From NCBI RefSeq assembly GCF_013315695.1, contig NZ_CP054353.1: a DNA stretch of 64,000 nt, one strand, 5' to 3'. Positions 8,784 to 34,029 of the stretch are shown piece after piece (within the stretch, counting starts at the first letter, position 1; every line of letters starts with the position of its first letter). Under the pieces are notes generated by a model. The model did no database searches. It had not been told where the DNA came from and saw only the letters and a list, made by a program, of their open reading frames with translations. Made by a program: the position numbers and the translations under genes. This DNA comes from Escherichia coli (lineage in GTDB: Bacteria > Pseudomonadota > Gammaproteobacteria > Enterobacterales > Enterobacteriaceae).

Positions 8784-8859
8784 GCCGATATAGCTCAGTT
8801 GGTAGAGCAGCGCATTCGTAATGCGAAGGTCGTAGGTTCGACTCCTATTATCGGCACCA
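8784..8859 (+). tRNA. thrW: tRNA-Thr (anticodon CGU)
   Basis: 76 nt, gccgatatagctcagttggtagagcagcgcattCGTaatgcgaaggtcgtaggttcgactcctattatcggcacca. It folds as a cloverleaf with an encoded CCA end, downstream of proA as in E. coli. Confidence 0.95.
8841..8859 (+). other. attL core (thrW 3' end, actcctattatcggcacca)
   Basis: Near-identical copies occur in inverted orientation at 32590..32608 (18 of 19 nt) and, degenerate, at 39506..39523. Confidence 0.75.
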
Positions 8860-9024: not shown

Positions 9025-10239
9025 GTGAAACTCAATGCCCGTCAAATAGACACAGCCAAGCCAAAAGAGAAGGCTTACAAGCTGGCCGATGGTGGCGGTT
9101 TGTATCTCTTGGTAAAACCTAATGGAGGTAAATACTGGCGACTTAAATATCGTGTAGCTGGTAAAGAGAAGCTATTGGCACTAGGTGTTTATCCTGAGGT
9201 TACTCTAGCCGATGCTCGGGCAAAACGTGAAGATGCGAAAAGAGGTATCGCTGGTGGTATCGAACCGATGGAAGCGAAACGAGAGGAAAAGATTGCCCGG
9301 GAAACGCAGTTAAACAACACCTTCAAAGATATTGCCCTTGAGTGGCACAGCAGCAAATTAAAAAAATGGTCTGCTGGTTATGCTTCAGACATCCTCGAAG
9401 CCTTCAACAAAGATGTGTTCCCTTACATTGGCAAAAAACCCATCGCCGAAATCAAACCACTTGAACTTCTGAATGTGCTGCGTCGCATCGAGGGGCGCGG
9501 TGCTACAGAAAAAGCCAAAAAAGTGAGGCAACGGTGCGGGGAAGTTTTCCGCTATGCAATAGTCACTGGTCGCGCAGAGTATAACCCTGCACCAGACCTT
9601 ACTAGCGCGATGCAAGGCCATGAATCTAATCATTACCCTTTCCTTACAGCCAAAGAATTACCTGATTTTTTCAAGGCATTGTCCAGTTACTCAGGAAGCG
9701 CATTGGTTGTTATGGCGGCTCGTCTACTGATTATCACCGGCTTGCGGACTGGCGAACTACGTGGCGCATTATGGGATGAAATTGATTTCAACAAGGCTAT
9801 CTGGGAGATACCCGCTTCACGTATGAAAATGCGGCGGCCTCATATTGTGCCATTGTCTGAGCAGGCTCTTTCGCTTATTGGGAAGATTAGAGAAATAACA
9901 GGCAATTACCCTCTTATGTTTCCCGGGCGCAATGATCCAAGGAAAACAATGAGCGAGGCCAGCATAAACCAAGTGTTTAAGCGCATTGGCTACGCTGGAC
10001 GTGTAACTGGTCATGGGTTCCGGCACACTATGAGTACGATTTTGCATGAGCAGGGCTATAACACTGCGTGGATAGAAACGCAGCTCGCTCACGTTGATAA
10101 GAACTCAATTCGTGGCACATACAACCATGCGCAATATCTGGATGGAAGGCGGGAGATGCTTCAATGGTATGCCGACTATATGGATTCTCTCGAGCATGGC
10201 GGAAATGTGGTGCATATGGTGTTTGAAAAACACGCATGA
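9025..10239 (+). CDS. Tyrosine recombinase, P4-family integrase
   Basis: 404-aa ORF with a GTG start. The N-terminus MKLNARQIDTAKPKEKAYKLADGGGLYLLVKPNGGKYWRLKYR is typical of P4-like integrases. The C-terminus has HGFRHT and a conserved Tyr region. It sits directly next to the tRNA. Confidence 0.9.
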   Translation: MKLNARQIDTAKPKEKAYKLADGGGLYLLVKPNGGKYWRLKYRVAGKEKLLALGVYPEVTLADARAKREDAKRGIAGGIEPMEAKREEKIARETQLNNTFKDIALEWHSSKLKKWSAGYASDILEAFNKDVFPYIGKKPIAEIKPLELLNVLRRIEGRGATEKAKKVRQRCGEVFRYAIVTGRAEYNPAPDLTSAMQGHESNHYPFLTAKELPDFFKALSSYSGSALVVMAARLLIITGLRTGELRGALWDEIDFNKAIWEIPASRMKMRRPHIVPLSEQALSLIGKIREITGNYPLMFPGRNDPRKTMSEASINQVFKRIGYAGRVTGHGFRHTMSTILHEQGYNTAWIETQLAHVDKNSIRGTYNHAQYLDGRREMLQWYADYMDSLEHGGNVVHMVFEKHA

Positions 10240-10491
10240 AACAACTGGACAAGTATACAGAGGTTTACTAAAGTATAAGGGAGTAGATTGATAAAAACTC
10301 ACAGAGGATTGCTATTTAACAGTTAGCCATGGAGAAGGGCAATCGCTCTTTTAACAACGAAGATGGAATCTTCTACGCAGCTGAAAAGCTGGATGCTCTT
10401 TAACAGCCTTTGGTGCTTTTCTGATGCAGGAAAGAATAGGGATACATGCACCTTTACAATGCATGTAATGATTCATCCATGAGGCTGCGGA

Positions 10492-10515
10492 GCGCTGACA
10501 AAGCGCAATTGCTCT
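10492..10515 (+). repeat. 24-nt exact direct repeat, copy 1 (gcgctgacaaagcgcaattgctct)
   Basis: Identical to 10605..10628. It lies in the int/alpA intergenic region. Confidence 0.8.
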
Positions 10516-10604
10516 TTAACATTGATGTGGGCGGGATGGTTCGTCCCGCAGTGACCGATAGATTTCTATCGGGAAACATACAATGATTCAAATATGAATC
10601 TACG

Positions 10605-10628
10605 GCGCTGACAAAGCGCAATTGCTCT
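10605..10628 (+). repeat. 24-nt exact direct repeat, copy 2
   Basis: Identical to 10492..10515, with 113 nt spacing. The two copies fall in different reading frames, so they are not coding repeats. Confidence 0.8.
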
Positions 10629-10890
10629 CTTGCCTGCCCACCATGCCCTGAAAAAGGGCGTTCTTTAAAACTACTGGATGTCACGCCTAATAGCGTGATC
10701 CTGCCGAAATGCAGGGTAGCTCTACCCTTGTGGAGCAAACAAACCAAAACAATCTGACTATCTTTTATAAAAGACCGCAATATGTTTTTCATATTGTGGT
10801 CTTTGGCGTATTCGACATTTGACGCAAATAAAACTCTCGCCATTCGTTGCAGGAGGGGGTTATTGCGTCATTAGTACAGGATATTAATAA

Positions 10891-11094
10891 ATGGCTAATT
10901 ACAATTCATTAATTCGTCTCTCTGAAGTTCAAAGGCGAACTGGTTATAGCAAAGCATGGATTTATCGTCTTATTAGTCAGGGGAGGTTCCCTAAACAGGT
11001 AAAAATTGGAAGTCGGGCAATTGCTTTTGTTGAGTCTGAAATAGATGAATGGATTGAGAAGTGTATATTAGAATCTAGAGACGAGGTGGCCTGA
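10891..11094 (+). CDS. AlpA-family (Xis/Vis-like HTH) regulator
   Basis: 67 aa, with ...IRLSEVQRRTGYSKAWIYRLISQGRFPKQVKIGSRAIAFVESEIDEWI, the AlpA/prophage CP4-57 regulatory pattern. Confidence 0.85.
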   Translation: MANYNSLIRLSEVQRRTGYSKAWIYRLISQGRFPKQVKIGSRAIAFVESEIDEWIEKCILESRDEVA

Positions 11095-11525
11095 TGGAAA
11101 AGAAAAACCGCCCATTACAGGCGGCTAATTCAGATATTCGTGTATCTGATGTTACGCCCCTTACAAAATCCCTTCAAGCACCAAAGCGCACACCGAAAAA
11201 GCATCGTGCCAGAGTCTATATGCTGCGTACTGGTATAGAGGGATGGACAGAAAATGACATTCTTCGCTACTGCCGTCTGTCTTCTGGTCGTAACTATGCA
11301 ACAGAGTTAGAACGCCAGCTTGGAATCACTCTGGAGCGTATCGACGAAAAGAATCCTGATGGTATCGGAACACACCTTCGCTACCGTTTCTCCTGCCGTG
11401 GTGATGTTCTGAAAGTGATCACTCATGTTAACCATCTTGCGAACATAAATGATCACAACGGACTTTCTCAGCAGGAAATTGCCGACATTCTGAAACTCTA
11501 CCCGGACGCGTTTAACGCCGCCTAA
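11094..11525 (+). CDS. Hypothetical protein (143 aa)
   Basis: Its start overlaps the alpA-like stop (TGATG). No family recognised. Confidence 0.55.
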   Translation: MEKKNRPLQAANSDIRVSDVTPLTKSLQAPKRTPKKHRARVYMLRTGIEGWTENDILRYCRLSSGRNYATELERQLGITLERIDEKNPDGIGTHLRYRFSCRGDVLKVITHVNHLANINDHNGLSQQEIADILKLYPDAFNAA

Positions 11526-11537
11526 CGGAGACTGAAA

Positions 11538-12371
11538 ATGAACATCGAAAAAAGCAGATTAATTTCTGAGGCCGCCCCTCATCTGAACGCCTCTCTGGGC
11601 ACAATTAACGGTAATGAATTTGCCGCAATTGTCCCGGTTATTCCTGGTCATATCGGTGGGCGTGAAACCAATATTGTTAGCGCAAAAGCGTTACACAAAG
11701 CGTTGGGCGTGGGAAAAGACTTCTCTACATGGATCACTGATCGCATCTCTGAATATGACTTCACCATTGGGCACGATTACTCAGTCCATAAAACAATTTC
11801 CCCAAATTTGGGGAAAAGCCCGAATGGCGCGGCTTACAGCAAGATAAAGCACTCTGGCAGACCCGGTAAAGACTATCTGTTAAGTGTCGGAATGGCGAAA
11901 GAACTGGCAATGATCGAACGCAATGATCAGGGTCGCGCTATCCGCCGTTATTTCATCCAGTGCGAGGAAGAATTACAGCGTAGCGTTCCTGAAATCGCCG
12001 CCCGCTATCGTCGCCAGCTAAAAGCCCGTCTCAGTGCCGCAAACAACTTTAAGCCAATGTGCGATGCGCTGAATATGGCCCGTGCCGAGATGGGTAAAAC
12101 GACGCAGCAACACCACTACACAAACGAGAGCAATATGATTTCTCGTATCGTTCTTGGTGGGCTAACTGCTAAGCAGTGGGCGCGGATAAATGGCTATTCT
12201 GGCGAACCTCGCGACCATATGAACGCAGAACAGCTTGAGCACCTCTCATATCTCGAAAGCACCAATATCACGTTAATTGATATGGGCATGGAATATGAGC
12301 AGCGCAAAGGAGAACTCACCCGCCTGTCGCAACGCTGGCTCGCCAAGCGTCTGGAGGCGGTCCATGTTTAA
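11538..12371 (+). CDS. AntA-type phage antirepressor-like protein
   Basis: 277 aa. The central region SAKALHKALGVGKDFSTWITDRISEYDFTIGHDY...DYLLSVGMAKELAMIERNDQGRAIRRYFIQCE matches the AntA/AntB antirepressor domain as I remember it. Confidence 0.65.
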   Translation: MNIEKSRLISEAAPHLNASLGTINGNEFAAIVPVIPGHIGGRETNIVSAKALHKALGVGKDFSTWITDRISEYDFTIGHDYSVHKTISPNLGKSPNGAAYSKIKHSGRPGKDYLLSVGMAKELAMIERNDQGRAIRRYFIQCEEELQRSVPEIAARYRRQLKARLSAANNFKPMCDALNMARAEMGKTTQQHHYTNESNMISRIVLGGLTAKQWARINGYSGEPRDHMNAEQLEHLSYLESTNITLIDMGMEYEQRKGELTRLSQRWLAKRLEAVHV

Positions 12372-12546
12372 GCCGACAGGAACACCACAACCTCAAAAAC
12401 GCTACAAAGATGCCCACGGAGCACTCGTTACTGTCGAAAGCGTGTCTCACAACCGAGTGACGTTTTATCGCGACGGGTATCAATCGCCATGCGTACAACC
12501 GCTGGCGCGCTTCATGAAGGAGTTCGCGGAGGTTAACAAATGCTAA
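12364..12546 (+). CDS. Small protein, DUF4222-like
   Basis: Internal ATG 12364 of ORF 12277..12546 overlaps the upstream stop. MFKPTGTPQPQKRYKDAHGALVTVESVSHNRVTFYRDGYQSPCVQPLARF resembles the DUF4222 prophage family. Confidence 0.5.
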   Translation: MFKPTGTPQPQKRYKDAHGALVTVESVSHNRVTFYRDGYQSPCVQPLARFMKEFAEVNKC

Positions 12547-13201
12547 CCGTCCAGAAGAAGATATTTTCACTGGCTGGTATGTCACCAAAATCCAGCAATA
12601 TGACAGCAAAGTCTGGCATTAATACAGCAGATACAAGCAAAGTTTATCATTTTCTGGTGGTAGGAGCGGATGCCTTAACTATGTCAGAAATTACGGTCGA
12701 TGGTGTTAGCGTTGAGAAGGTCAGCGGCTGCGCCAGAGAATTTCTGGTCGTAGATGGCTTTCTCTGCTCGCGTAGTGACTCCACAAAAACCTTCGTCCAT
12801 ACGCGCGACGTTAACGAAATGAGCGCGATGTATTGTGCATCTGGTGCTTCCAATACTGAGTTTTCGGAGTCCATAAAAAAGAGCTTGCCGTTATGCGGCA
12901 ACACGGTTTATGGTTATAAGGCACCTCATAAAACGGGTGCCGGGATTGGCGTCCTGAAAATTCTGAAGGCGACATATGACGCGCCGAGCGTCTTTTTTTA
13001 TGTCGTAGGTCTGACTCACCCATTTTTTGGGCGTTGGTGTATAATCCAGCGCCTTTGTCAATCAATGGTGGCTCAGGCGGGGGCTTCTTCGGAAGCGCCG
13101 GTATCCTTCAGAGCCGGTTACGCCAACCCTGTCTGGGCTACCACCAGCGAAATTGGCGTTTCCGGTGGTAGCGTAACCTGCTATCTGAAGGAGGCTGCCA
13201 C
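12540..13201 (+). CDS. 5' two-thirds of a 355-codon open frame, possibly an Ash-family-like protein. The true 3' end is unresolved.
   Basis: ATG 12540 overlaps the upstream stop (ATGCTAA). The frame stays open to 13607. From 13202 onward better-supported genes occupy the DNA, and 13068..13180 looks like structured RNA. Confidence 0.3.
13068..13180 (+). ncRNA. Candidate C4/CI-like antisense immunity RNA
   Basis: Three hairpins lie directly upstream of the icd-like gene. The first is a UUCG-loop stem at 13083..13096. The second is ccgg/ccgg at 13098..13117; its loop tccttcaga (13104..13112) is complementary to tctgaagga (13184..13192) across the icd-like Shine-Dalgarno. The third is a 9-bp stem, 13137..13145 with 13164..13172. 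The ends of the RNA are not defined. Confidence 0.35.
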
Positions 13202-13396
13202 ATGCTGGCTACTACCCCTACCCAAAAACCGCAATTTATCTGGATTATCGCCGCAGTTCGCCGCGATTGCCCGACAATTACCGCCAAAATTCATCATATT
13301 GCTGCCGAGTCTGAACGCGATGCTCGCCGTTCTCTGGTGCGCGATCACGTCTGCTTTTTTGCTGGTCGTATCCGCATGGAGGTGGCACATGATTAA
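13202..13396 (+). CDS. Icd-like (host cell division inhibitor-like) small protein
   Basis: 64 aa starting MLATTPTQKPQFIWIIAAVRRDCPT, recalled as the Icd-like family. A strong SD (gaaggagg) precedes ATG 13202. Confidence 0.6.
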   Translation: MLATTPTQKPQFIWIIAAVRRDCPTITAKIHHIAAESERDARRSLVRDHVCFFAGRIRMEVAHD

Positions 13397-13607
13397 AACC
13401 TACGATGTGCATATGGATCCCCTCGAACGCACAAGCCAGATCATCACACTGACAGAAGTGATTAACGACATTCTGGTGAGCAACTCTCCCTCACGAGACG
13501 AAAGGCTGAAGGCGTTACTCGCGATATTGGATCTCGCCGTTCGTGACGTTCATTTCCTGCTGGAAGGTGGCGAAATGCCAGGAAAAACGGGGGCAACCAA
13601 TGAATAA
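13389..13607 (+). CDS. Hypothetical small protein (72 aa)
   Basis: ATG 13389 overlaps the icd-like stop (ATGATTAA). It starts MIKTYDVHMDPLERTSQIITL. Confidence 0.5.
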   Translation: MIKTYDVHMDPLERTSQIITLTEVINDILVSNSPSRDERLKALLAILDLAVRDVHFLLEGGEMPGKTGATNE

Positions 13608-13794
13608 CTCAATTAATACCCCTCGCCTTACGTCCGCACTTCAATTAATCGAGCAAGCAGCGGCTGTCCTGGTTGCTGTCAGTCTTTCGGCTGAAGAAAT
13701 GGACGCTGCTGATGTCGTGGATGCGATTAAAGCGTGCTCATCTTTGGTTAACGATGCCCGTGCCGAGCTGGTAATTCTTGGGGGTGAAAAATGA
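13600..13794 (+). CDS. Hypothetical small protein (64 aa)
   Basis: Internal ATG 13600 of ORF 13543..13794 overlaps the upstream stop. It starts MNNSINTPRLTSALQLIEQAAA. Confidence 0.5.
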   Translation: MNNSINTPRLTSALQLIEQAAAVLVAVSLSAEEMDAADVVDAIKACSSLVNDARAELVILGGEK

Positions 13795-14054
13795 ATATCA
13801 ACTTAATTTATCGTCATCCGTGTGAGCTGGAAATTGAATCATTGCTGGGGCGTGAAGAGCCATATCCAGACTCATTCACTCCCGCAGATTGCGCGACTGA
13901 ACGGCTTACCAGAGCGCGCACAGGTCTGGTTCATGTGATGAATGAGATTGTTCCCTCGGTGGGAGGGGAACAGGCGACAGTAATCAATAGCTGGCTACAA
14001 AAAGTTACCTCCCTGATAGATATCGGTTTAATCGATGTGGAGAGTGCGAAATGA
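13791..14054 (+). CDS. Hypothetical small protein (87 aa)
   Basis: ATGA start/stop overlap with the upstream gene. It belongs to the coupled operon. Confidence 0.55.
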   Translation: MNINLIYRHPCELEIESLLGREEPYPDSFTPADCATERLTRARTGLVHVMNEIVPSVGGEQATVINSWLQKVTSLIDIGLIDVESAK

Positions 14055-14272
14055 CCAACATCCAGCTCATTGAAGCGCAATGTCGCATCGAACAGGTTCA
14101 GACTGTTTTAGGGTTCTGGCTTGAAGGGGCCAGCCCCAGCAACAGAGACAAGTTAATGATTGGCGCGGTTATGTCACTGCTCAATGGCGTACCAGAAGCT
14201 ATTCAGGAAGCGGACGAATTGTTGGGCAAATATGAGTTACAGAATCATTCAGGCGAGGCGAAACATGAATAA
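14051..14272 (+). CDS. Hypothetical small protein (73 aa)
   Basis: ATGA overlap with the upstream gene. Confidence 0.55.
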   Translation: MTNIQLIEAQCRIEQVQTVLGFWLEGASPSNRDKLMIGAVMSLLNGVPEAIQEADELLGKYELQNHSGEAKHE

Positions 14273-14867
14273 TTTCTTAACTTTCCATGCAGAAGCAACG
14301 CCTGACGGCGTAAACATCATGTACCGCAGCAACGATGGCATGACAGAACGCGTTGAGGCCGTCTCATATATTGATGCCGTAAATCGTCTGGATGCCGGGG
14401 ATTATGACGATAAACCAGATGAAGGTATGTCAATACATCTCGCTATTGCCGATGGCGGCAACCAGGGATATTTCGATTACACATCACAGCATAACGTCAT
14501 TATGTGGAGATGGCTGATCGCAACAGTATTCATGCTGGAAATGAGAGAGGAAAACGGCACTGTCAGCATCATTGATGATACTGGCAATCCTTCCGAAGTG
14601 GCTGTTTATTCCAACGGCATCGTCGCCATGCCGCTGTATCCAGTAGCAGAGCGCCTCGCTATGGCAAACAACATTGAGGGCGCGATGATAGAACGTTTTG
14701 GCATCGAGTCTGGCACAGAACGCGCCATCATTTTCTACAGAGCCATGATGGATGTGGAACAAGGAGCACTGACTCCATTTGGTCGTGAAACGCTTGCTGA
14801 ACTTCACAACAGCTTTATAGCTGAACTGAATGAAAACGGCATGCCAGCGGAACCAGTGACGCACTGA
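14265..14867 (+). CDS. Hypothetical protein (200 aa)
   Basis: ORF track 14160..14867. I use ATG 14265 (MNNFLTFHAEATPDG), which overlaps the upstream stop. Confidence 0.55.
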   Translation: MNNFLTFHAEATPDGVNIMYRSNDGMTERVEAVSYIDAVNRLDAGDYDDKPDEGMSIHLAIADGGNQGYFDYTSQHNVIMWRWLIATVFMLEMREENGTVSIIDDTGNPSEVAVYSNGIVAMPLYPVAERLAMANNIEGAMIERFGIESGTERAIIFYRAMMDVEQGALTPFGRETLAELHNSFIAELNENGMPAEPVTH

Positions 14868-14877
14868 GGATGGAGCC

Positions 14878-15219
14878 ATGATTACTAAAAATTTCCGACT
14901 GAATGCGCTGGCAAATAAGTATGCGTCGGCACTGTATAACCACATTACCTCCACCAGCGGCGGGGACTATTTCATGGTTGATGCGGACGGCGAGGCCGTA
15001 CGTGTGGAAATCGTCAATGGAGTAAAAGGCGTTCGCAGCCTGATCGATAGCTACACACTGGCAGCCATGAAAGTGTTCTACCCGCAGTGGGAAACCGTGG
15101 GGATCGAGCTTCTTGAGCGTTGCGTCACTAAGGACGGATTGACTGACGTCGGGCGTGAGATATGGCAAAGCATGGTTAATGACATGGGCGCAACTGTAGC
15201 GGGAGGTTCTCATGCGTGA
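14878..15219 (+). CDS. Hypothetical protein (113 aa)
   Basis: The SD ggatggag precedes the ATG. Its C-terminal motif DGLTDVGREIWQSMV is shared with both neighbouring genes. Confidence 0.55.
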   Translation: MITKNFRLNALANKYASALYNHITSTSGGDYFMVDADGEAVRVEIVNGVKGVRSLIDSYTLAAMKVFYPQWETVGIELLERCVTKDGLTDVGREIWQSMVNDMGATVAGGSHA

Positions 15220-15583
15220 AAATGCAGAAATGGCGCTTAGCTCCGCAATCGGAGAGCAGGTGGCAAAGATTGCTGGTGCTGTGTGGATTCATAACCTTCA
15301 TTCTACTGGTGAAGAGAAAATGGCAATTCAGACGCCAGAGGGACGCACCATTACTACATCTCTGAAGCCGTCAGATGTTTGTGATCTGATTTGCGCATTC
15401 ATGTACCCAGCAATGAGGACTGTCCACGGCGATAAGTGGAAACTTGCGACAACCGCTGAATTTGATATGTGGCTAAACAATGATGGCATGCTGACTGATT
15501 ACGGAATAACCAAGTGGCAGATGCTGGTTAGCCATATCGCAAACGCTATAGACCACGTGGGGTACGGTGATGCGAAACATTGA
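15212..15583 (+). CDS. Hypothetical protein (123 aa)
   Basis: It overlaps the upstream stop. Its C-terminal motif is DGMLTDYGITKWQMLV. Confidence 0.55.
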   Translation: MRENAEMALSSAIGEQVAKIAGAVWIHNLHSTGEEKMAIQTPEGRTITTSLKPSDVCDLICAFMYPAMRTVHGDKWKLATTAEFDMWLNNDGMLTDYGITKWQMLVSHIANAIDHVGYGDAKH

Positions 15584-18326
15584 TCTTATCCGTCAGGTTA
15601 TCAGTGCGTCTGAAAACAACTGGCCTCATGTGCTGGGCTGCCTGAACATAAATGTCCCTGACTCTCCGCGCCGTCATGCTCCCTGCCCTGCATGTGGGGG
15701 CAAAGATCGATTCCGGTTCGATGACAACGGGCGCGGTAGCTTCATCTGTAATCAGTGCGGCGCTGGTGATGGGCTGGATTTAATTAAACGCGTAAATAAC
15801 TGCGACACAACAGAGGCGGCGCTTCTTGCCGCTGATGTTCTGGGTATTGATTACCGGACAACGGAAACACCAGAAGCCACCAGCCAGAAACGGGAACAAC
15901 TGGAAACCGAGCGCCAGCGACGCGAACAGGAGCGCCTGAAAAGGGCAGAGAAGGACGAACAACAAAGACGGGATACGTTTTCCCGTCAGTTTGATGACAT
16001 GCGCAGAAAGGCTGTAAACGGCAAATCTGATTATCTGGTTGCGAAAGGGGTAGGTGATTTTACATTCCCCGTGTTGCCCGATGGATCTCTGTTGCTGGCG
16101 CTGGTGGATAAATCCGGCGCAGTCACAGCAGCACAGACTATTACATCACATGGTGAAAAAAGACTCCTGACAGGTTCAGCAAAGCGGGGGGCATATCACG
16201 CCATAAACGCGCCAGAAACAACACAGAGCATCTTAATCGCAGAAGGGCTGGCAACGGCATTATCTGCCCATTTAATTCGTCCAGAGGCGCTGACAGTGGC
16301 GGCGATTGATGCCGGGAACCTGTTATATGTCGCCCAGGTACTGCGGGATAAATTTCCTTCAGCACAAATCATCATTGCTGCGGATAACGACCACAGCGAA
16401 GGAAGACAAAACACGGGGAGAATAGCAGCAGAAAAAGCAGCTTTATCTGTTTCTGGATGGGTGGCATTACCCCCGACAGATCACAAAGCAGACTGGAATG
16501 ATTACCACCAAAAACACGGCATTAAATGCGCCACAGAAGCGTTCAATAAGTCAATGTACCAACCACAGGGTAATGGCGTGAAACATGAGCCACAGACCAT
16601 TGAGGGAAGCGATTTTAAGGTTATGGATACCGACCCACTGAAACCAAGAATAGAAAGCCGCGAGGATGGTATTTATTGGGTATCTCCGAGAGCTGACAGC
16701 CAGAGTGGAGAAATCATCAATAACGAAAGCTGGTTATGTTCTCCGTTAAGCGTTATCGGTACTGGCAGAGACGATAAAGACCAGTATCTCATTCTTCGCT
16801 GGCTGTCGTTTGGTTCTGAAACGCCGACAACCGCTGCCATTCCACTGGCTGATATTGGTGAACGTGAAGGATGGCGCACACTTAAAGCTGGTGGGGTAAA
16901 TGTCACGACCAAAAGCAGCCTCAGAGCAATACTGGCAGACTGGCTACAACGCAGTGGCTCTCGTGAATTGTGGCGTGTTGCTCATGCCACTGGCTGGCAA
17001 TGCGGAGCGTACATCATGCCTGATGGGGAAATCATCGGAACACCTGAAAATCCTGTGCTGTTCAGCGGGAGAAGCTCAGCCGCAGCCGGATATACCGTCT
17101 CAGGGAGCGCGAAAAGCTGGCGTGATAACGTGGCGCGTCTGGCCTTTGGTAACTATTCAATGATGACCGGGATCGGCGCAGCACTGGCAGCGCCATTGAT
17201 TGGGCTGGTGGGCGCTGACGGGTTCGGCATTCATTTCTATGAGCAGTCGAGCGCAGGTAAGACCACCACGGCAAACGTGGCGAGCAGCTTATACGGCAAC
17301 CCTGATTTACTGCGGCTGACGTGGTACGGAACCGCGCTGGGGCTGGCAAATGAGGCCGCCGCCCACAATGACGGACTAATGCCGCTTGATGAAGTTGGTC
17401 AGGGCGCTGATCCTGTCAGCGTTTCACAGTCTGCCTATGCGTTATTTAACGGTGTAGGGAAACTGCAAGGCGCTAAAGATGGTGGAAACCGGGATCTAAA
17501 ACGCTGGCGTACAGTGGCAATCAGCACCGGAGAAATGGATTTAGAAACATTTATCGCTACTTCCGGGCGAAAAACCAAAGCCGGGCAACTGGTGCGACTG
17601 CTGAATATTCCGTTGAGTAAAGCAGTACGCTTTCACGATTACCAGAACGGAAAACAGCACGCAGACGCACTGAAAGACGCTTACCAGCATCACCACGGCG
17701 CGTCCGGGCGTGAGTGGATTAAATGGCTGGCAGACCACCAGCAACAGGCTATTAAAACCGTTCGTGACTGCGAAAGCAGATGGAGAAGCCTGATCCCATC
17801 CGATTATGGTGAGCAGGTTCACCGTGTAGCCGCGCGATTTGCCATTCTGGAGGCCGCATTGTTGTTAGGCGAGGTTGTAACAGGCTGGGATGCTCAGACA
17901 TGCCGTGATGCGATACAGCACAGCTATAACGCATGGTTGCGCGAGTTCGGCACAGGTAACAAAGAGCATCAGCAGATTATTGAACAAACGGAGGCATTTC
18001 TTAATGCCTATGGGCTTAGCCGTTTTGCACCATTTCCATACAGCCCGGCAGATTTGCCCATCAAAGATTTAGCCGGATACCGTCAGCGTGGAGAACATGA
18101 CGAAAGCCCAATGATTTTCTACACATTCCCGGCCACATTTGAAAAGGAGATCGCATGTGGTTTCAACGCAAAACAGTTTGCTGAAGTGTTGAAAAAAGCC
18201 GGGATGCTAACCCCACCAAACAGCGGTCGTGGATACCAAAGAAAATCACCACGTATTCAGGGACGACAAATAAACGTTTATGTACTCAATTACCAGCCAG
18301 GAGATTATAACTCATCTGAAGAATGA
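15567..18326 (+). CDS. Primase-helicase (P4 alpha-like: Zn-ribbon, Toprim, DUF927-type NTPase)
   Basis: 919 aa. It has CPACGGKDRFRF...FICNQCG (Zn ribbon), IIAADNDHSEGRQNTG (Toprim acidic motif) and a Walker A-like YEQSSAGKTT. The start could be GTG 15567 or ATG 15570. Confidence 0.9.
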   Translation: MMRNIDLIRQVISASENNWPHVLGCLNINVPDSPRRHAPCPACGGKDRFRFDDNGRGSFICNQCGAGDGLDLIKRVNNCDTTEAALLAADVLGIDYRTTETPEATSQKREQLETERQRREQERLKRAEKDEQQRRDTFSRQFDDMRRKAVNGKSDYLVAKGVGDFTFPVLPDGSLLLALVDKSGAVTAAQTITSHGEKRLLTGSAKRGAYHAINAPETTQSILIAEGLATALSAHLIRPEALTVAAIDAGNLLYVAQVLRDKFPSAQIIIAADNDHSEGRQNTGRIAAEKAALSVSGWVALPPTDHKADWNDYHQKHGIKCATEAFNKSMYQPQGNGVKHEPQTIEGSDFKVMDTDPLKPRIESREDGIYWVSPRADSQSGEIINNESWLCSPLSVIGTGRDDKDQYLILRWLSFGSETPTTAAIPLADIGEREGWRTLKAGGVNVTTKSSLRAILADWLQRSGSRELWRVAHATGWQCGAYIMPDGEIIGTPENPVLFSGRSSAAAGYTVSGSAKSWRDNVARLAFGNYSMMTGIGAALAAPLIGLVGADGFGIHFYEQSSAGKTTTANVASSLYGNPDLLRLTWYGTALGLANEAAAHNDGLMPLDEVGQGADPVSVSQSAYALFNGVGKLQGAKDGGNRDLKRWRTVAISTGEMDLETFIATSGRKTKAGQLVRLLNIPLSKAVRFHDYQNGKQHADALKDAYQHHHGASGREWIKWLADHQQQAIKTVRDCESRWRSLIPSDYGEQVHRVAARFAILEAALLLGEVVTGWDAQTCRDAIQHSYNAWLREFGTGNKEHQQIIEQTEAFLNAYGLSRFAPFPYSPADLPIKDLAGYRQRGEHDESPMIFYTFPATFEKEIACGFNAKQFAEVLKKAGMLTPPNSGRGYQRKSPRIQGRQINVYVLNYQPGDYNSSEE

Positions 18327-18807: not shown

Positions 18808-18901
18808 TGCTATTTGTTTCATATTTTGCAATTACGATGATGAATATTGCGATTTGTGAAACTATAATAACTGTTGTTTTATACAGTTCTAAGGGGGCGT
18901 T

Positions 18902-19063
18902 ATGGCTATTTCAGTAAAGCCGGTATTGATAAGTGAGAAGCAAATGGAAGCGATAAAGAAAATTCAGGAAGAGCAGCGTAAAAAATCAGGAATTGGAGTA
19001 GCGCCAACTCTGCATGAAATTGCACGAGGGTTAATAGATAAGGCGCTGGCAGGCTGTATGTGA
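18902..19063 (+). CDS. Small protein (53 aa), possibly a ribbon-helix-helix type
   Basis: Not in the ORF track because it is under 60 aa. A strong SD (aaggggg) lies 5 nt before the ATG. The sequence is MAISVKPVLISEKQMEAIKKIQEEQRKKSGIGVAPTLHEIARGLIDKALAGCM. Confidence 0.4.
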   Translation: MAISVKPVLISEKQMEAIKKIQEEQRKKSGIGVAPTLHEIARGLIDKALAGCM

Positions 19064-19079
19064 AAATGGATGGCATCGC

Positions 19080-19541
19080 ATGGAACTAAAATTTATTGAT
19101 AACCCTGTGCGATTACAGGCCTTTCTTAACGAGCCAGGCAATACCGAAAATATTGTTGAGCCGGGGCACACGTACTACATCAAGCCTGATGCGGTATATC
19201 TCGGCATCTACGAAGGATTAGTGCTGGCTGGCGTTCATGAAGTGCGTAACTTCTGGCATAGCGTTGTTGAATGCCATGCGGTGTACGACCCCGGATTCCG
19301 TGGTGAATATGCACTGCAAGGACATCGATTATTCTGCAAATGGCTTCTCGAAAACTCACCATTCCTTAACAGCATTACCATGGTTCCTGACACCACGAAA
19401 TACGGACGGGCAATTATCCGTTTGCTTGGCGCTACCCGTGTTGGTCATCTTGATGATGCTTATATCAGATGTGGTAAACCCGTCGGCGTAACGCTTTATC
19501 AGTTAACTCGGCAACAATATAAGGAATTCAGCGAATGTTAA
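19080..19541 (+). CDS. P22 gp14-like protein (ejection-protein assembly factor family)
   Basis: 153 aa. The assignment rests on its position directly upstream of the gp7/gp20/gp16-like genes, its size, and a recollection that gp14 belongs to a DUF2824-type family. Confidence 0.45.
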   Translation: MELKFIDNPVRLQAFLNEPGNTENIVEPGHTYYIKPDAVYLGIYEGLVLAGVHEVRNFWHSVVECHAVYDPGFRGEYALQGHRLFCKWLLENSPFLNSITMVPDTTKYGRAIIRLLGATRVGHLDDAYIRCGKPVGVTLYQLTRQQYKEFSEC

Positions 19542-20212
19542 TTACCCATATAGCTTATAAACATCTCAATCGTGCCGTATACGAAAAAGGCGGTGATGGT
19601 GGTGCCTCTAAAGCTCAGGCGAAGGCCCAGCAGCAGGCAATTGATTTGCAGCGCGAGCAGTGGAATACGGTGATGAATAATCTCAAGCCGTATGCAGAAG
19701 TCGGATTGCCTGCTTTACAACAACTACAAGGACTGATGACTCTGGAAGGGCAGAATAAAGCCGCGAATGATTTCTTTGGTTCTGGTTTATATAAAACACA
19801 GGCAGATCAGGCCCGTTATCAGAACCTTGTCTCAGCAGAAGCTACCGGGGGGCTTGGCTCAACAGCTACCAGTAACCAGTTATCTTCCATTGCGCCCATG
19901 CTTTATAACAATTGGCTCAGTGGGCAAATGCAAAATTATGGAAACCTGCTAAATGTCGGGATGAATGCGGCATCAGGGCAGGCAACAGCAGGGCAAAACT
20001 ACGCCAATAATACCGGACAACTCTTGCAGGGGCTTGGCGCTATTCGTGCAGGTCAGGCGCAGCAGCCATCCAGTCTTGCGCGTGGTATTGGTGGGGCGGC
20101 ATCAGGCGCTTTAGCGGGTGCGCAACTTGGTTCCGTTGTTCCGGGTATAGGTAATGTCGCCGGGGCTATTGGTGGTGGGCTTATTGGTCTTGTTGGGGGG
20201 CTTGGATTCTAA
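19535..20212 (+). CDS. P22 gp7-like ejection (DNA transfer) protein
   Basis: 225 aa. It has YEKGGDGGASKAQAKAQQQAIDLQREQW...KPYAEVGLPALQQLQ and a Gly-rich C-terminus, as in podovirus gp7-type DNA transfer proteins. Its start overlaps the upstream stop. Confidence 0.65.
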   Translation: MLITHIAYKHLNRAVYEKGGDGGASKAQAKAQQQAIDLQREQWNTVMNNLKPYAEVGLPALQQLQGLMTLEGQNKAANDFFGSGLYKTQADQARYQNLVSAEATGGLGSTATSNQLSSIAPMLYNNWLSGQMQNYGNLLNVGMNAASGQATAGQNYANNTGQLLQGLGAIRAGQAQQPSSLARGIGGAASGALAGAQLGSVVPGIGNVAGAIGGGLIGLVGGLGF

Positions 20213-21630
20213 TGGCGACATGGCAACTTGGCGGGCTGCCTAGCATGGCACCGCAAAATGATAATGCTCCTCGTTCTTCCGTTCCTCAGCCTGTGCAGTA
20301 TCAGCAGCAGCCAAACGTAGGTTTAATGGCGCTACAGGGGCTAAGAGGCGTTGCTGAGATTAATCAGCAGGCACGTCAACAACAGCGTAAAGCAGAGTTT
20401 CAGAAAGCATATGCCGGGGCTTTTGAGTCTGGAGACAGAAACAAAATGCGCAGTCTTATTTCTGAGTATCCAGAAGAATTTGAAAGCGTTCAGAAAGGGA
20501 TGGGCTTTATTGATGACGACCAGAGAAATTCTATTGGTCATCTTGCGACTAGTGCTCAAATCGCATCTTCGCTCGGAACTGGGGCATTTGGAAAATTCAT
20601 AGCAGATAACGAAGATGAAATGCGTCGTTTGGGAATTTCTCCTGAGTCTGTTGCCGAAATGCATGTTAATGATCCACAGGGATTCCAGCGGCTTGCTGGT
20701 AGTATGGCACTGTTTTCTCTCGGTCATGAGAAGTACTTCGATATCAAAGATCGAATGGAAGGTCGGGATATTGAGCGTGGCAAGTTGGCAGAGACGATCC
20801 GCAGCAATCAAGCCGGAGAAGCACTTCAGGCGAGAGGGCAGGATATTAGCCGAGCAAATGCGTTAACGTCAGCATATGCACCAACAGCCGCAATGCAGAA
20901 TTACAATCAATACGCGCAAATGTTAAAGGCGGATCCAGAGGGGGCTGCGGCATTTGCGGCAGCGGCTGGAATTAATACAAACGCCAAAAAATTAATGAGT
21001 GTTAGAGAAAACGATGATGGCACTGTCACAAAATACTACACAGACGGAAGTGAAGAGCAGGGAAAACTAAACCAGCCAATATCTGGAGATGGGTTTCGTC
21101 CAATAGCTTTGCCAACAGCCCAAAAGATCATGGAAAAGTCGCCAGAAGGGGCTAAAAAAGCTGCTGGATTTGCATACAGAGTTAGGGATGCTCTTGATTC
21201 AATAGATACACTGAAAGACCAGCTTAGCCCACAGCGAGTGGCGATCATTAATAATGCTTTGGGTAATGGGACGCTGGCTAACTTAACGCTCAGCCCAACA
21301 GAGCAGCAATACGTTGTTAATGCTAATGACGCAATAATGGCAATACTCCGTCAGGAAACAGGGGCATCTATCCTACCAGCTGAAATGTCCAAATATTATC
21401 AAATGTATTTCCCTCAGCCTGGTGATTCCACAAAAACCATTGATACCAAGCGTAGGAAGATGGAAAACCAGTTCAATTCGCTGAAAGCTGCTTCTGGTCG
21501 AGCTTATGATGCTTTGCGGGTTATTTCAGCAGTTGACAGAGGAACTTCTTCTTCGTCGCAGACATTGCCGCAATCTGAGCAGGTATCACAGCCAGCAGTA
21601 ATTTTTCTTCACTATGGGGTGATTAGGTAA
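20212..21630 (+). CDS. P22 gp20-like ejection protein; last codons replaced by IS1 sequence
   Basis: 472 aa (P22 gp20 is about 471 aa from memory). TAATG overlap with the gp7-like gene. IS1 starts at 21626. The reconstructed ancestral end is ...HYGVING-stop. Confidence 0.6.
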   Translation: MATWQLGGLPSMAPQNDNAPRSSVPQPVQYQQQPNVGLMALQGLRGVAEINQQARQQQRKAEFQKAYAGAFESGDRNKMRSLISEYPEEFESVQKGMGFIDDDQRNSIGHLATSAQIASSLGTGAFGKFIADNEDEMRRLGISPESVAEMHVNDPQGFQRLAGSMALFSLGHEKYFDIKDRMEGRDIERGKLAETIRSNQAGEALQARGQDISRANALTSAYAPTAAMQNYNQYAQMLKADPEGAAAFAAAAGINTNAKKLMSVRENDDGTVTKYYTDGSEEQGKLNQPISGDGFRPIALPTAQKIMEKSPEGAKKAAGFAYRVRDALDSIDTLKDQLSPQRVAIINNALGNGTLANLTLSPTEQQYVVNANDAIMAILRQETGASILPAEMSKYYQMYFPQPGDSTKTIDTKRRKMENQFNSLKAASGRAYDALRVISAVDRGTSSSSQTLPQSEQVSQPAVIFLHYGVIR

Positions 21631-31155: not shown

Positions 31156-31189
31156 TGCCCCGCCAGCTATAATCGCGGGGCCTCGTTTT
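31156..31189 (+). terminator. Possible terminator after ykgJ
   Basis: gccccgc (31156..31162) pairs with gcggggc (31174..31180). The sequence ctcgttttt follows. Confidence 0.45.
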
Positions 31190-31340
31190 TCAGGGATAAC
31201 AAACCCCGAAACTTCTTCCATCTGCCAGCAACAATGCCTCTTCCTCTATAGTGTTCTCCGGATCTACAGCATCCTGAAGTAGCGCGATGTACTCACTGGC
31301 TATCTGCATCAGAAAGTTAAAAACAATGTTTTTAACCTAT

Positions 31341-31369
31341 AAAAATGGCGCTGTATTTGCGCCATTTTT
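31341..31369. terminator. Bidirectional hairpin downstream of yagU
   Basis: aaaaatggcg (31341..31350) pairs with cgccattttt (31360..31369). A/T runs flank it on both sides. Confidence 0.6.
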
Positions 31370-31382
31370 ATCATTCAATGCA

Positions 31383-32385: not shown

Positions 32386-32583
32386 TCCGCTTGCCATTTT
32401 CGAACAGCTGATTGGTTTAGTCCGGTGTTTCCCTGCTTGCACTTAAAAATGAGCGGATGGGAAACTCTCGAAATGGTTCGTCGATATGCTCACCTTTCAG
32501 TCAGGCATTTCACCGCGCACGCGAGCAAAATCAAAGGCACAAGAGGAGAACGTAGTTTACTTAAATGTGAGATAACTTATTGA
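32386..32583 (+). pseudogene. 3' fragment of a lambdoid/P22-type tyrosine integrase
   Basis: It reads ...CHFRTADWF...MSGWETLEMVRRYAHLSVRHFTAHASKI, carrying the HxxR and catalytic Tyr box. The frame is closed by a stop at 32383..32385. The fragment ends 7 nt before the att repeat, which is the attL-int geometry of a lambdoid prophage when viewed in the ancestral orientation. Confidence 0.55.
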
Positions 32584-32589
32584 TTTAAA

Positions 32590-32608
32590 TGGTGCCGATA
32601 AGAGGAGT
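32590..32608 (-). other. thrW 3'-end repeat (att copy), inverted in the present arrangement
   Basis: tggtgccgataagaggagt is the reverse complement of actcctCttatcggcacca. This matches thrW 8841..8859 at 18 of 19 positions. Confidence 0.75.
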
Positions 32609-32751
32609 AAAACACTCGATTAATCTCGTGTTAATGCCATCACCTACGACCATTACTAATTGATTGAATCTTATAGAAAAAATTATCATTTTCTATGCGT
32701 TACAATCAATTTTCACATTACAAACGCTCCGACACTTTAGCCGGGGAGTTT

Positions 32752-34029
32752 ATGAGATACAAGCCCAATCAATACATAATCTGTGATTCTTACGGTAACT
32801 ACTATTTGAGGATCACGTTGCCTGTGTATATGCAGCCCTTTTTTGAAGGAAAAAGGACGTTTGTCAGAAGTCTGCACACAAGTAGTCTTCGTGTTGCACG
32901 TAGAAAGCGTGATCAGATTGCAGATGAATACCATTGTCTACGGGAGAGTGTCGCCCCTGTAAACAGCACAATAGAGAACACGCTGGAACTGTTACGCAGT
33001 AAGGCTAAATACGCCAAAACAGCTACCAGAATGCAAGATACAGCGTCTTCGTGTCCGTCATTGCTTAAAATTCTTGAAATCTACCTGACAATTAACAGCA
33101 CGAAGAAGAAGCCAGCCACTTTAGCTAAGGCAAGAAAAGCGGTAGAGATGTTTCTCTCCTACCGTAAAAAGCCTGATATTGCATTGCAAGATGTAAGCCG
33201 CACCACTGTTACAGGCTGGATAGAACACATGCAAAAAACCCTTTCACAACAATCAATTGCAAATTATATCAGCCCAATGGCCCAGCTATGGGAGTTAGCT
33301 TCATCACGTTACCACGATGCGCCAGAAAGGGCGCTCTCCCCCTGGCGAGGGCATAGGCTTGATGTGGCACAAAGTAGAGAGAGCTACGAGGCATTTTCTA
33401 ACAAAGAGCTATTGCAGGTGTTGCAAGTATTTTCCGGTGATTCAGCAGAAAACAAAGAAATGATGGCTTTGTGTCTTATCGGTGCTTATACAGGTATGCG
33501 GATCAATGAGATAGCAAGTCTCACAATAGACGATGTGAAAGAGATCGAAGGTGTGCTGTGTTTTGAAATCACACAGGGAAAAACGAAAGCTGCGGCACGT
33601 CTTGTGCCTGTGCATAGCCTTATCACTCCGTTGGTGTTGTCGCTGCGTGAAAAGCCTCATAATGGCTTTTTGTTCTATCACGCCAGCATTACAGAGCGTG
33701 CTGATGGTAAACGTTCCACGTGGCACACGCAGAGATTTACAAGAGCTAAACGAAAGGCTTTAGGGGAAAAGGGAACAGAAAGGAAGGTGTTTCATTCTCT
33801 GAGACACGGAGTAGCACAGCTTCTTGATCGAAATCAAATTCCAGAAGACAGGATCGCCCTTCTCCTGGGCCATACACGCGGCAATACAGAGACATTCCGC
33901 ACATATAGCAAGAATGCAGCTTCTCCAGTAGAGCTTAAAAACTATATTGAGCTTCTACGCTACCCTGAAATAGAGAAAGGCTTATCAATCAATAAAAAAT
34001 CAAATTTAATGCGCAAAACAACGCCATAG
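32752..34029 (+). CDS. Tyrosine recombinase/integrase
   Basis: ORF track 32695..34029. I prefer ATG 32752 (MRYKPNQYIICDSYGNYYLRITLP), which follows the SD ggggag. The C-terminus has HSLRHG...LLGH...Y motifs. Confidence 0.85.
   Translation: MRYKPNQYIICDSYGNYYLRITLPVYMQPFFEGKRTFVRSLHTSSLRVARRKRDQIADEYHCLRESVAPVNSTIENTLELLRSKAKYAKTATRMQDTASSCPSLLKILEIYLTINSTKKKPATLAKARKAVEMFLSYRKKPDIALQDVSRTTVTGWIEHMQKTLSQQSIANYISPMAQLWELASSRYHDAPERALSPWRGHRLDVAQSRESYEAFSNKELLQVLQVFSGDSAENKEMMALCLIGAYTGMRINEIASLTIDDVKEIEGVLCFEITQGKTKAAARLVPVHSLITPLVLSLREKPHNGFLFYHASITERADGKRSTWHTQRFTRAKRKALGEKGTERKVFHSLRHGVAQLLDRNQIPEDRIALLLGHTRGNTETFRTYSKNAASPVELKNYIELLRYPEIEKGLSINKKSNLMRKTTP

Follow-up and report, generated by a model that had tools for sequence, protein, structure and literature searches.

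We analyzed part of a 64,000-nt stretch of Escherichia coli DNA (contig NZ_CP054353.1, here called the window) that very probably encodes the immunity and replication-control switch of a satellite island of the P4/PICI type (PICI, phage-inducible chromosomal island) located at the tRNA-Thr gene thrW. The switch appears to be homologous to seqA-CI-seqC-kil/eta of P4, to immI of P1 and P7, and to isrK-orf45 of Gifsy-1. It consists of a leader RNA, a C4-type antisense RNA, a target over the ribosome-binding site of an Icd-like gene, and a long open reading frame (ORF) that spans all of them (Table 1). An earlier note on this DNA had proposed that a C4/CI-type RNA targets the icd ribosome-binding site at the head of a coupled operon ending in a primase, and had suggested a covariance-model scan and a fold with homolog covariation as checks. 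Both checks came out in favor of the proposal, and the Rfam matches, stem covariation, and loop/target co-variation described below argue for it.

The antisense RNA was recognized by the Rfam C4 model (RF01695), which matched with 79.9 bits against a gathering score of 45 and over model positions 1-87 of 87. Folding of the matched segment gave the C4 structure with -46.4 kcal/mol (z = -4.1 relative to shuffled sequences). Its stems also covary. Among 33 distinct C4 sequences with a 12-nt loop, 99.9% of the cells were paired and 13 of 27 pairs had compensatory changes on both sides; the five pairs of the second hairpin were fixed by the search pattern and are hence uninformative. ACCA follows the closing stem, and the known RNase P substrates C4 and CI likewise carry ACCA after the stem. 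We propose that an RNA of ~80 nt may be processed from a longer transcript at this site. As a separate observation, the conserved AUGG at the 5' end of the Rfam C4 consensus supplies the long ORF with a Met codon in its reading frame (13065..13067). In Gifsy-1, translated orf45 starts in the region that corresponds to this AUGG.

Two single-stranded elements of the C4 RNA have complements nearby. The b' element is displayed in a hairpin formed by GCCGG (13097-13101), the 12-nt loop UAUCCUUCAGAG (13102-13113), and CCGGU (13114-13118). As the earlier note had read from the letters, the loop core tccttcaga (13104-13112) has its exact reverse complement, tctgaagga, at 13184-13192. When both strands of the window are searched, the 9-mer has no exact copy besides these two sites. 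The a' element is ACGCCAA (13120-13126), and its complement TTGGCGT occurs both downstream (13153-13159) and upstream (12946-12952) of C4. Complementary targets for a' and b' are thus found on both sides of C4, as a1 b1 upstream and a2 b2 downstream, on the same transcript strand. We also calculated RNA duplex energies with duplexfold. The C4 RNA gave -52.1 kcal/mol with the downstream target (shuffled targets, -36.5 +/- 4.4), and its value with the leader, -51.8 against -44.5 +/- 5.4 kcal/mol, was indistinguishable from shuffles. Because the method ignores intramolecular structure, these energies were set aside and are not relied on.

The downstream b target overlaps the Shine-Dalgarno (SD) sequence GGAGG (13190-13194) of the Icd-like gene, which stands 7 nt before the ATG at 13202. 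This gene is the first ORF after the C4 target. Its product shows 44% identity to Kil of P4 (E = 4e-11), and NCBIfam assigns it to the Icd-like family that the earlier note had named. In pairwise comparisons of close relatives, mismatches in its own frame were distributed 23/12/80 over the three codon positions, a signature that marks it as a real coding gene. The Icd-like gene would be the first to be translated on transcripts from an internal candidate promoter, and its ribosome-binding site would be the target of C4.

We examined the relation between loop and target across related loci. Viral contigs were scanned with a pattern that fixed GCCGG, CCGGT, and CCAACCC and left the loop free, which yielded 120 loci; the comparison set comprised 105 unique modules with full flanks and 66 distinct loops. 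About 20 of the 120 pattern matches have GC-rich loops without targets and look like chance. These were kept in the 105-module comparison and left out of the frame analysis (criterion: target match < 7 nt). P4 was missed by the pattern because its a' element differs, and it was compared through Rfam alignments. When the loop complement was compared with the sequence 15-160 nt downstream, the mean longest match was 7.8 nt at the own locus and 4.6 nt with swapped loops. Downstream matches of at least 8 nt were found for 72 of 105 modules at their own locus, compared to 9 of 2100 loop-swapped controls. The corresponding numbers upstream were 60 of 105 and 25 of 2100.

The position of the target is conserved as well. 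Across ~40 loop types, the downstream loop complement lies at a near-constant offset of +47 to +57 nt and merges into GGAG. A start codon follows this GGAG by 5-10 nt in related modules, and it often opens a sequence beginning MAT..., the N-terminus of Icd-like proteins. The 5' part of the loop (UCC, anti-SD) is conserved and its 3' part is hypervariable, which indicates that the loop acts as a specificity code. We propose that the variable 3' half of the loop sets immunity specificity. The a' element changes together with its targets in the same manner: L103 (L-numbers denote the related loci) has GTTCCAA with TTGGAAC at both targets, and P4 has UCUCAC with GUGAGA. The co-variation of loop and target, of a', and of the stems shows that the antisense-target relation is real and under selection. 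One viral contig in this set, L035 (IMGVR_UViG_2671181028_000005, minus strand), carries two C4 modules ~650 nt apart, at 9728..9760 and 10384..10416. Their loops differ (GTTCTATGTTGA and TTTCCGTATGCG), and the two may be immunity types arranged in tandem within a single element.

A second structured RNA precedes C4. This leader was matched by the Rfam isrK model (RF01394) and has the three hairpins of that family, the last of which is a terminator-like hairpin (12978-12992) followed by a T-run to ~12999. The leader copy of the a target, a1, is in the loop of the second leader hairpin, and b1, TCTGAAGG (12962-12969), is in a linker. The Rfam c4-a1b1 model (RF03163) scored 19.1 bits at 12908..12960, under its gathering score of 46.7. 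Because both the a1 and the b1 sequences are present in the leader, its function is likely shared with c4-a1b1 despite the sub-threshold score. A candidate promoter inside the long ORF predicts a transcription start at G12921, the first base of the isrK match. In a 13-module alignment, the TTG of its -35 hexamer and the TA..T of its -10 hexamer are kept. By position, this promoter is the counterpart of PLE in P4 and of PisrK in Gifsy-1.

The spacer between the leader and C4 contains a further hairpin, seen in the fold, whose loop holds a TATAAT hexamer (13040-13045). The earlier note had drawn attention to this hexamer. It is present, and we rejected it as a general promoter of the module: it lies in an insert of ~29 nt that occurs in some subtypes only, and it has no recognizable -35 hexamer. 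TATAAT is not conserved in L042, L053, and L043, SfV-type modules lack the segment, and no promoter was predicted at the spacer hairpin by the promoter scan. The hexamer may be a secondary promoter specific to this subtype, and the hairpin probably does not belong to the core of the switch.

Table 1. Features of the thrW island from its attachment site to the primase gene (positions in the window)
Feature	Position	Strand	Remarks
tRNA-Thr(CGU), attachment site	8784..8859	+	
Integrase	9025..10239	+	
AlpA-type regulator (PF05930)	10891..11094	+	
Hypothetical gene	11094..11525	+	
AntA/AntB-family protein	11538..12371	+	Pfam
DUF4222	12364..12546	+	
'Ash family' bridging ORF, 355 codons	12540..13607	+	runs over promoter, leader, terminator, C4, targets, and icd
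Candidate sigma-70 promoter	12885..12914	+	TTGCCG (12885-12890), 18-nt spacer, TATGGT (12909-12914); inside long ORF
isrK / P4 seqA / c4-a1b1-type leader RNA	12921..12998	+	Rfam isrK (RF01394), 67.8 bits, gathering score 50
Subtype-specific spacer hairpin	13027..13056	+	GGCGTTGG / CCAGCGCC
C4 / CI-type antisense RNA	13061..13148	+	17-bp closing stem around two hairpins; b' loop and a' junction as pairing elements
Downstream target (P1 a2/b2, P4 seqC)	13153..13194	+	TTGGCGT (13153-13159) and TCTGAAGGA (13184-13192)
Icd-like / P4 Kil-like gene, 64 aa	13202..13396	+	NCBIfam NF033153, 71.7 bits, cut-off 25
Seven small ORFs	13389..13607, 13600..13794, 13791..14054, 14051..14272, 14265..14867, 14878..15219, 15212..15583	+	
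Primase (Zn-ribbon, Toprim, DUF927)	15570..18326	+	Pfam

We propose that these elements would act in the following way. Transcription from the promoter in the long ORF (~12885-12914) would begin at ~12921, and much of it would stop at the leader terminator at ~12998, giving an IsrK-like RNA of ~77 nt. Read-through past the leader terminator would produce a precursor, from which the ~80-nt C4 RNA would be processed. The a' and b' elements of C4 would then pair with TTGGCGT and TCTGAAGGA of the downstream target and cover the icd SD. If icd is not translated, the coupled small ORFs would remain untranslated as well, and transcription would presumably undergo Rho-dependent termination before reaching the primase gene. 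The primase would not be made, and the island would stay in a non-replicating state. The target copies in the leader (12946-12969) would represent a second site of action, either by mediating termination as in seqA of P4 or by acting as a competitor for C4. This block could be overridden by transcription from the upstream alpA-antA-DUF4222 operon. Ribosomes would enter the 355-codon ORF at 12540 by translational coupling, cross the terminator, C4, and the targets, and pass to the ORF at 13600, such that the block is bypassed and replication is turned on. Such an override through a long ORF is the role described for eta of P4 (PMC10111431).

The leader could also be the dominant regulator, in a positive switch of the Gifsy-1 type. 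An IsrK-like RNA (12921-12998) made under stress would act in trans on the long transcript, pair with the C4 region, open the structure that conceals the downstream ribosome-binding site, and in this way activate icd and the replication operon, with repression by C4 being secondary. The isrK match at 67.8 bits, the terminator at the end of the leader, and the presence of both C4-complementary sequences within it are consistent with this possibility. In Gifsy-1, free IsrK competes for complementary sequences in the C4-like orf45 region and thereby activates expression, and IsrK supplied in trans raised downstream translation >100-fold (PMC4825925). The arrangements of the two systems differ, however. 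The translated ORF of Gifsy-1 overlaps the C4-like RNA and its cargo is an antirepressor, whereas the regulated ribosome-binding site in the window lies downstream of C4, as it does in P4 and P1. We consider a dominant positive switch possible but doubtful, and it does not exclude repression of the replication operon by C4.

Several points weigh against the proposal that C4 gates replication of a P4-type satellite. What we present here are sequence features, and the steps of transcription, processing, pairing, and termination are carried over from P4, P1, and Gifsy-1. The leader promoter at 12885..12914 is a candidate suggested by its position and partial conservation; our consensus promoter scan did not list it, as its 8 of 12 consensus matches fall below the scan cut-off. 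The motifs fixed in the search pattern restrict the sample of related modules to one branch of the C4 family. Because icd is out of frame with the bridging ORF, the P4 picture of kil nested in eta does not transfer exactly. Finally, the right side of the island is rearranged, with IS1 copies (IS, insertion sequence) and fragments of P22-like ejection genes. No second copy of the last 25 nt of the tRNA-Thr gene was detected, and no direct att repeat was found for this first island. It is possible that the element is defective and that its switch is not in use.

The rearrangements raise the question of whether the island has decayed and the module, though it looks intact, is a relic that is inactive and no longer regulates anything. 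The sequence to the right of the primase would fit this idea, as it holds copies of IS1 and IS2, ejection and integrase genes that are truncated, and an att-like site in inverted orientation. The module itself and the block from the integrase to the primase are intact, and both are at least 99.3% identical in many unrelated strains. The 1.4-kb region was matched in 1391 of 5426 complete E. coli genomes. On this evidence, we regard decay to a relic as unlikely.

The gene content on the right side was examined further. Directly after the primase, at ~18900..21630, a DUF2824 gene, whose product we take to resemble gp14 of P22, precedes phage DNA-ejection genes, the last of which is frameshifted and abuts IS1. 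Two origins are conceivable for this segment: a P22-like prophage that used the same thrW site may have left it behind, or it may be a satellite 'late zone' of an unusual kind. An inverted copy, and only an inverted copy, of the last 18 nt of the tRNA-Thr gene was found at 32590-32607 on the minus strand with one mismatch. It lies between a frameshifted integrase fragment (32420..32574) and a second, intact tyrosine integrase gene (32751..34028), and it resembles an att site that belonged to a second element of the thrW type and was inverted in an IS1-associated rearrangement. A full-length match to Rfam IS009 (RF02111; 193.4 bits) at 31177..31377 on the minus strand lies in the rearranged region near ykgM/ykgO and IS1 copies.

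On the left side, the island follows the layout of Gram-negative PICIs, with integrase, alpA, a Bro zone (AntA), and primase in one orientation beside a tRNA gene. The gene order was taken from the RefSeq annotation of identical or near-identical DNA and from Pfam and NCBIfam scans. Two RefSeq records list none of psu, delta, and sid in the interval from the integrase to the IS elements, a result that reflects annotation and not hidden Markov model scans of every ORF. A 129-aa ORF on the minus strand between the integrase and alpA (10454..10843) has no Pfam match and is unannotated in RefSeq; its position is where some islands carry a repressor gene. RefSeq lists seven small ORFs between icd and the primase, where the earlier note had counted eight, and five of their seven junctions overlap by 4 to 14 nt. 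One of them (13791..14054, equivalent to NZ_LR898874.1 4085783..4086046; 87 aa) is called 'nicotinic acetylcholine receptor subunit beta' in one RefSeq record and 'hypothetical' in another, and the first of these product names is evidently spurious. The gene at the end of the operon had been described as a primase-helicase in the earlier note; we likewise identify a primase, and the domains found describe it as a TOPRIM/DUF927 protein.

The nature of the controlled operon bears on a further alternative, a circuit of the P1 immI type in which C4 controls an antirepressor directed against the repressor of a helper or resident phage and does not control replication. C4 of P1 and P7 controls icd-ant. 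An AntA/AntB-family gene is present in the same island, as the earlier note had indicated and Pfam confirms, and the module of L010 is followed directly by a gene for a Bro-N antirepressor. The AntA gene, however, lies upstream of the leader promoter and of C4, and pairing of C4 at 13153-13194 therefore cannot gate it; the genes coupled downstream all lead to the primase. We consider this alternative very improbable for the window.

We also inspected the largest gene shortly downstream of the module in ten other specificity types. Replication-type domains were present in 6 of the 10. This gene codes for a DnaB-type helicase in L017, a P4 alpha-like primase in L031, a protein with D5-type primase-helicase domains and no primase domains in L053, proteins with an AAA_25 ATPase domain (of the RepA/DnaB-type helicase kind) in L038 and L111, and an HTH_36 protein in L004. 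It is a terminase gene in L092, has a C5-epimerase-like domain unrelated to replication in L044, and lacks a Pfam match in L109; L010, with its Bro-N gene, completes the set.

The long ORF that crosses the module is connected to its neighbors at both ends. An SD sequence (GGAGG, 12528-12532) precedes its ATG at 12540, this ATG overlaps the DUF4222 stop (TAA, 12544-12546), and the upstream alpA-antA-DUF4222 operon leads into it in this way. Its own stop (TAA, 13605-13607) overlaps the start of the next gene (ATG at 13600). Most of 51 modules share this organization, with a long-ORF start that follows an SD sequence and overlaps the upstream stop (ATGA) and a stop that overlaps the start of the next gene. 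Between the 5' end of C4 and the target, the Ash phase is free of stops in 49 of 53 modules with 12-nt loops, compared to 13 of 53 and 17 of 53 for the other phases, and the frame typically extends for hundreds of nucleotides on both sides of this stretch. In the window, the icd ORF (13202) is in another frame than the long ORF, and the gene nested in frame is the next one (13389..13607). In this subtype, the conserved GCTACT stands in another register relative to the SD, which places icd out of frame and lets the long ORF continue to 13607. We interpret the long ORF as a bridging ORF and the probable counterpart of eta in P4.

The conserved part of the long ORF coincides with the RNAs. The Pfam Phage_ASH match (PF10554; 117.5 bits) covers residues 124-232. 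The DNA behind these residues (12909..13235) comprises the leader, C4, and the downstream targets. Mismatches between close relatives over this stretch were distributed 134/151/156 by codon position in the Ash frame, with no third-position bias, although these pairwise counts include some pseudo-replication (L042 and L099 are nearly identical). The N-terminal segment gave 14/5/17, a count that comes from a single relative. We had also calculated the periodicity of column entropy over 46 divergent modules; this measure was uninformative, since at this divergence the icd positive control lacked periodicity, and it was replaced by the pairwise counts. The absence of codon periodicity over the Phage_ASH stretch, together with its presence in icd, indicates that the conservation of this 'protein family' is driven by RNA. 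The earlier note had suspected that the long ORF is an annotation artefact over the RNA. This view holds for the domain, which is the RNA region and lacks a coding signature, but not for the frame, which is kept open and is coupled to its neighbors.

That the functional product is a 355-aa regulatory protein of the Ash family, and that the RNA-model matches merely reflect its coding sequence, is highly unlikely: a Phage_ASH match, the RefSeq name 'ash family protein', and a frame that is open in most relatives speak for it, but the domain spans the RNAs and their targets, its codon-position counts contrast with those of icd, its stems carry compensatory changes, loop and target co-vary, the N-terminal parts of the long ORFs are of unequal length and unrelated between modules, and the 'cI/ash' ORF of P4 is the locus of CI RNA (PMC4825925, PMC10111431). 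We raise tentatively, and with considerable doubt, a broader idea about this family. PF10554 may consist of two translated structured RNAs and their targets, in an ORF that is kept open solely so that ribosomes from the upstream operon can cross the terminator, C4, and the duplex of C4 with its target, and override RNA immunity in this way. In the window, where a small change in the SD-ATG register has put icd out of frame, the override would switch on replication without the Icd/Kil division inhibitor, unlike in P4, whose Eta contains the Kil sequence.

RefSeq annotates the same DNA in two incompatible ways. One record contains a single 355-aa 'ash family protein'. The other contains a truncated 'ash family' pseudogene (12828..13175), the Icd-like gene, a 72-aa hypothetical gene, and a hypothetical gene on the minus strand (12684..12800). 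The C4 and isrK RNAs are annotated in neither of these two records.

The element is an unannotated member of the known and already surveyed family of P4/P1 antisense-RNA switches, and it does not represent a new mechanism. The value of identifying it lies chiefly in annotation and interpretation, as about a quarter of complete E. coli genomes carry matching DNA and the two RefSeq records that we inspected label the region only as 'ash family protein' or small hypothetical genes. Recognizing seqA, CI, seqC-kil, and eta in this DNA suggests how satellite islands keep replication silent and how induction could occur. The loop and its two target copies provide a simple sequence read-out of immunity type. 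The analysis also draws attention to a protein family of Pfam and NCBI in which the conserved core is RNA. The points to retain are the RNA origin of the Ash 'family', the conserved bridging ORF, the out-of-frame icd variant, and the clean loop/target code.

We compared the module to the regulatory regions of other mobile elements. P4 has the same order and orientation as the window: an isrK-model match (seqA), a C4-model match (CI), Kil, small ORFs, and primase. In detail, the P4 order is Vis (AlpA-like), seqA, CI, a 65-aa ORF whose position and length identify it as Kil, and then eps, orf151, orf106, and the alpha primase. As in the window, the long ORF of P4 starts upstream of the internal promoter and just after an AlpA-type gene. 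The start of eta precedes the constitutive internal promoter and is translationally coupled to the alpA homolog; ribosomes translate eta only on transcripts that come from the late promoter upstream, and this translation prevents termination (PMC10111431). The two elements differ in several respects. The primase of P4 is of the alpha D5 type and that of the window is of the DUF927 type, and in the window the genes for AntA and DUF4222 separate alpA from the long ORF. The kil gene of P4 shares the frame of eta, within which it is nested, whereas the Icd/Kil gene of the window is out of frame and the long ORF ends with the next gene. The loop sequence, and hence the immunity type, also differs.

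The immI region of P1 and P7 shares with the window the a' and b' elements of C4, the a1 b1 and a2 b2 targets, a downstream target that covers the ribosome-binding site of icd, and a first gene of the Icd family. The cargo of immI is ant, coupled to icd, whereas the window has a replication operon as cargo and its AntA-family gene upstream, outside C4 control. At the DNA level, P1-like phages in the database matched the leader part only. The isrK-orf45 (STnc1160)-anrP region of Gifsy-1 has the same isrK leader with a terminator, followed by a stretch with conserved nucleotides and variable protein sequence. IsrK is a structural homolog of seqA of P4, an RNA of ~80 nt (STnc1160) is processed from orf45, and the downstream gene receives the signal by translational coupling (PMC4825925). 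The cargo of Gifsy-1, antirepressor-like AnrP, activates the antiterminator AntQ, and the effect studied is activation by IsrK in trans. In that work, orf45 was not interpreted as a C4 RNA with a downstream icd ribosome-binding site as its target (PMC4825925).

The earlier note had viewed the arrangement as a hybrid, in which a C4/CI-type RNA would gate replication. It is not a hybrid but the layout of P4: the shared order of P4 and the window speaks against the hybrid view, as does the replication-type cargo of other specificity types. Homologs of CI and seqA have moreover been reported from Bro genes of PICIs in E. coli and of HE-PICIs, with a suggested role in immunity (PMC10111431). The 'Bro zone' layout of Gram-negative PICIs (Mageeney et al. 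2023), with integrase, alpA, Bro-network genes, and a replication zone, is that of the window, where AntA takes the Bro position. The thrW island is apparently not among the islands treated in PMC10111431, and its late zone has been replaced or disrupted by P22-like fragments and IS elements.

A related module is found in SfV (orf37-orf38-orf39) and in lambdoid prophages of the Stx type, where the isrK and C4 matches lie inside a long ORF (orf37) and are followed by an Icd-like start (MATV...) and a replication protein. This module is located between cro and the replication gene of a complete temperate phage that also has cI. Its leader-C4 spacer is 24 nt long, compared to 62 nt in the window, and its icd is in frame with the long ORF, in contrast to the out-of-frame icd of the window. 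P4, the SfV-type modules, and the six of ten sampled specificity types indicate that a C4/CI RNA ahead of replication genes is a common arrangement.

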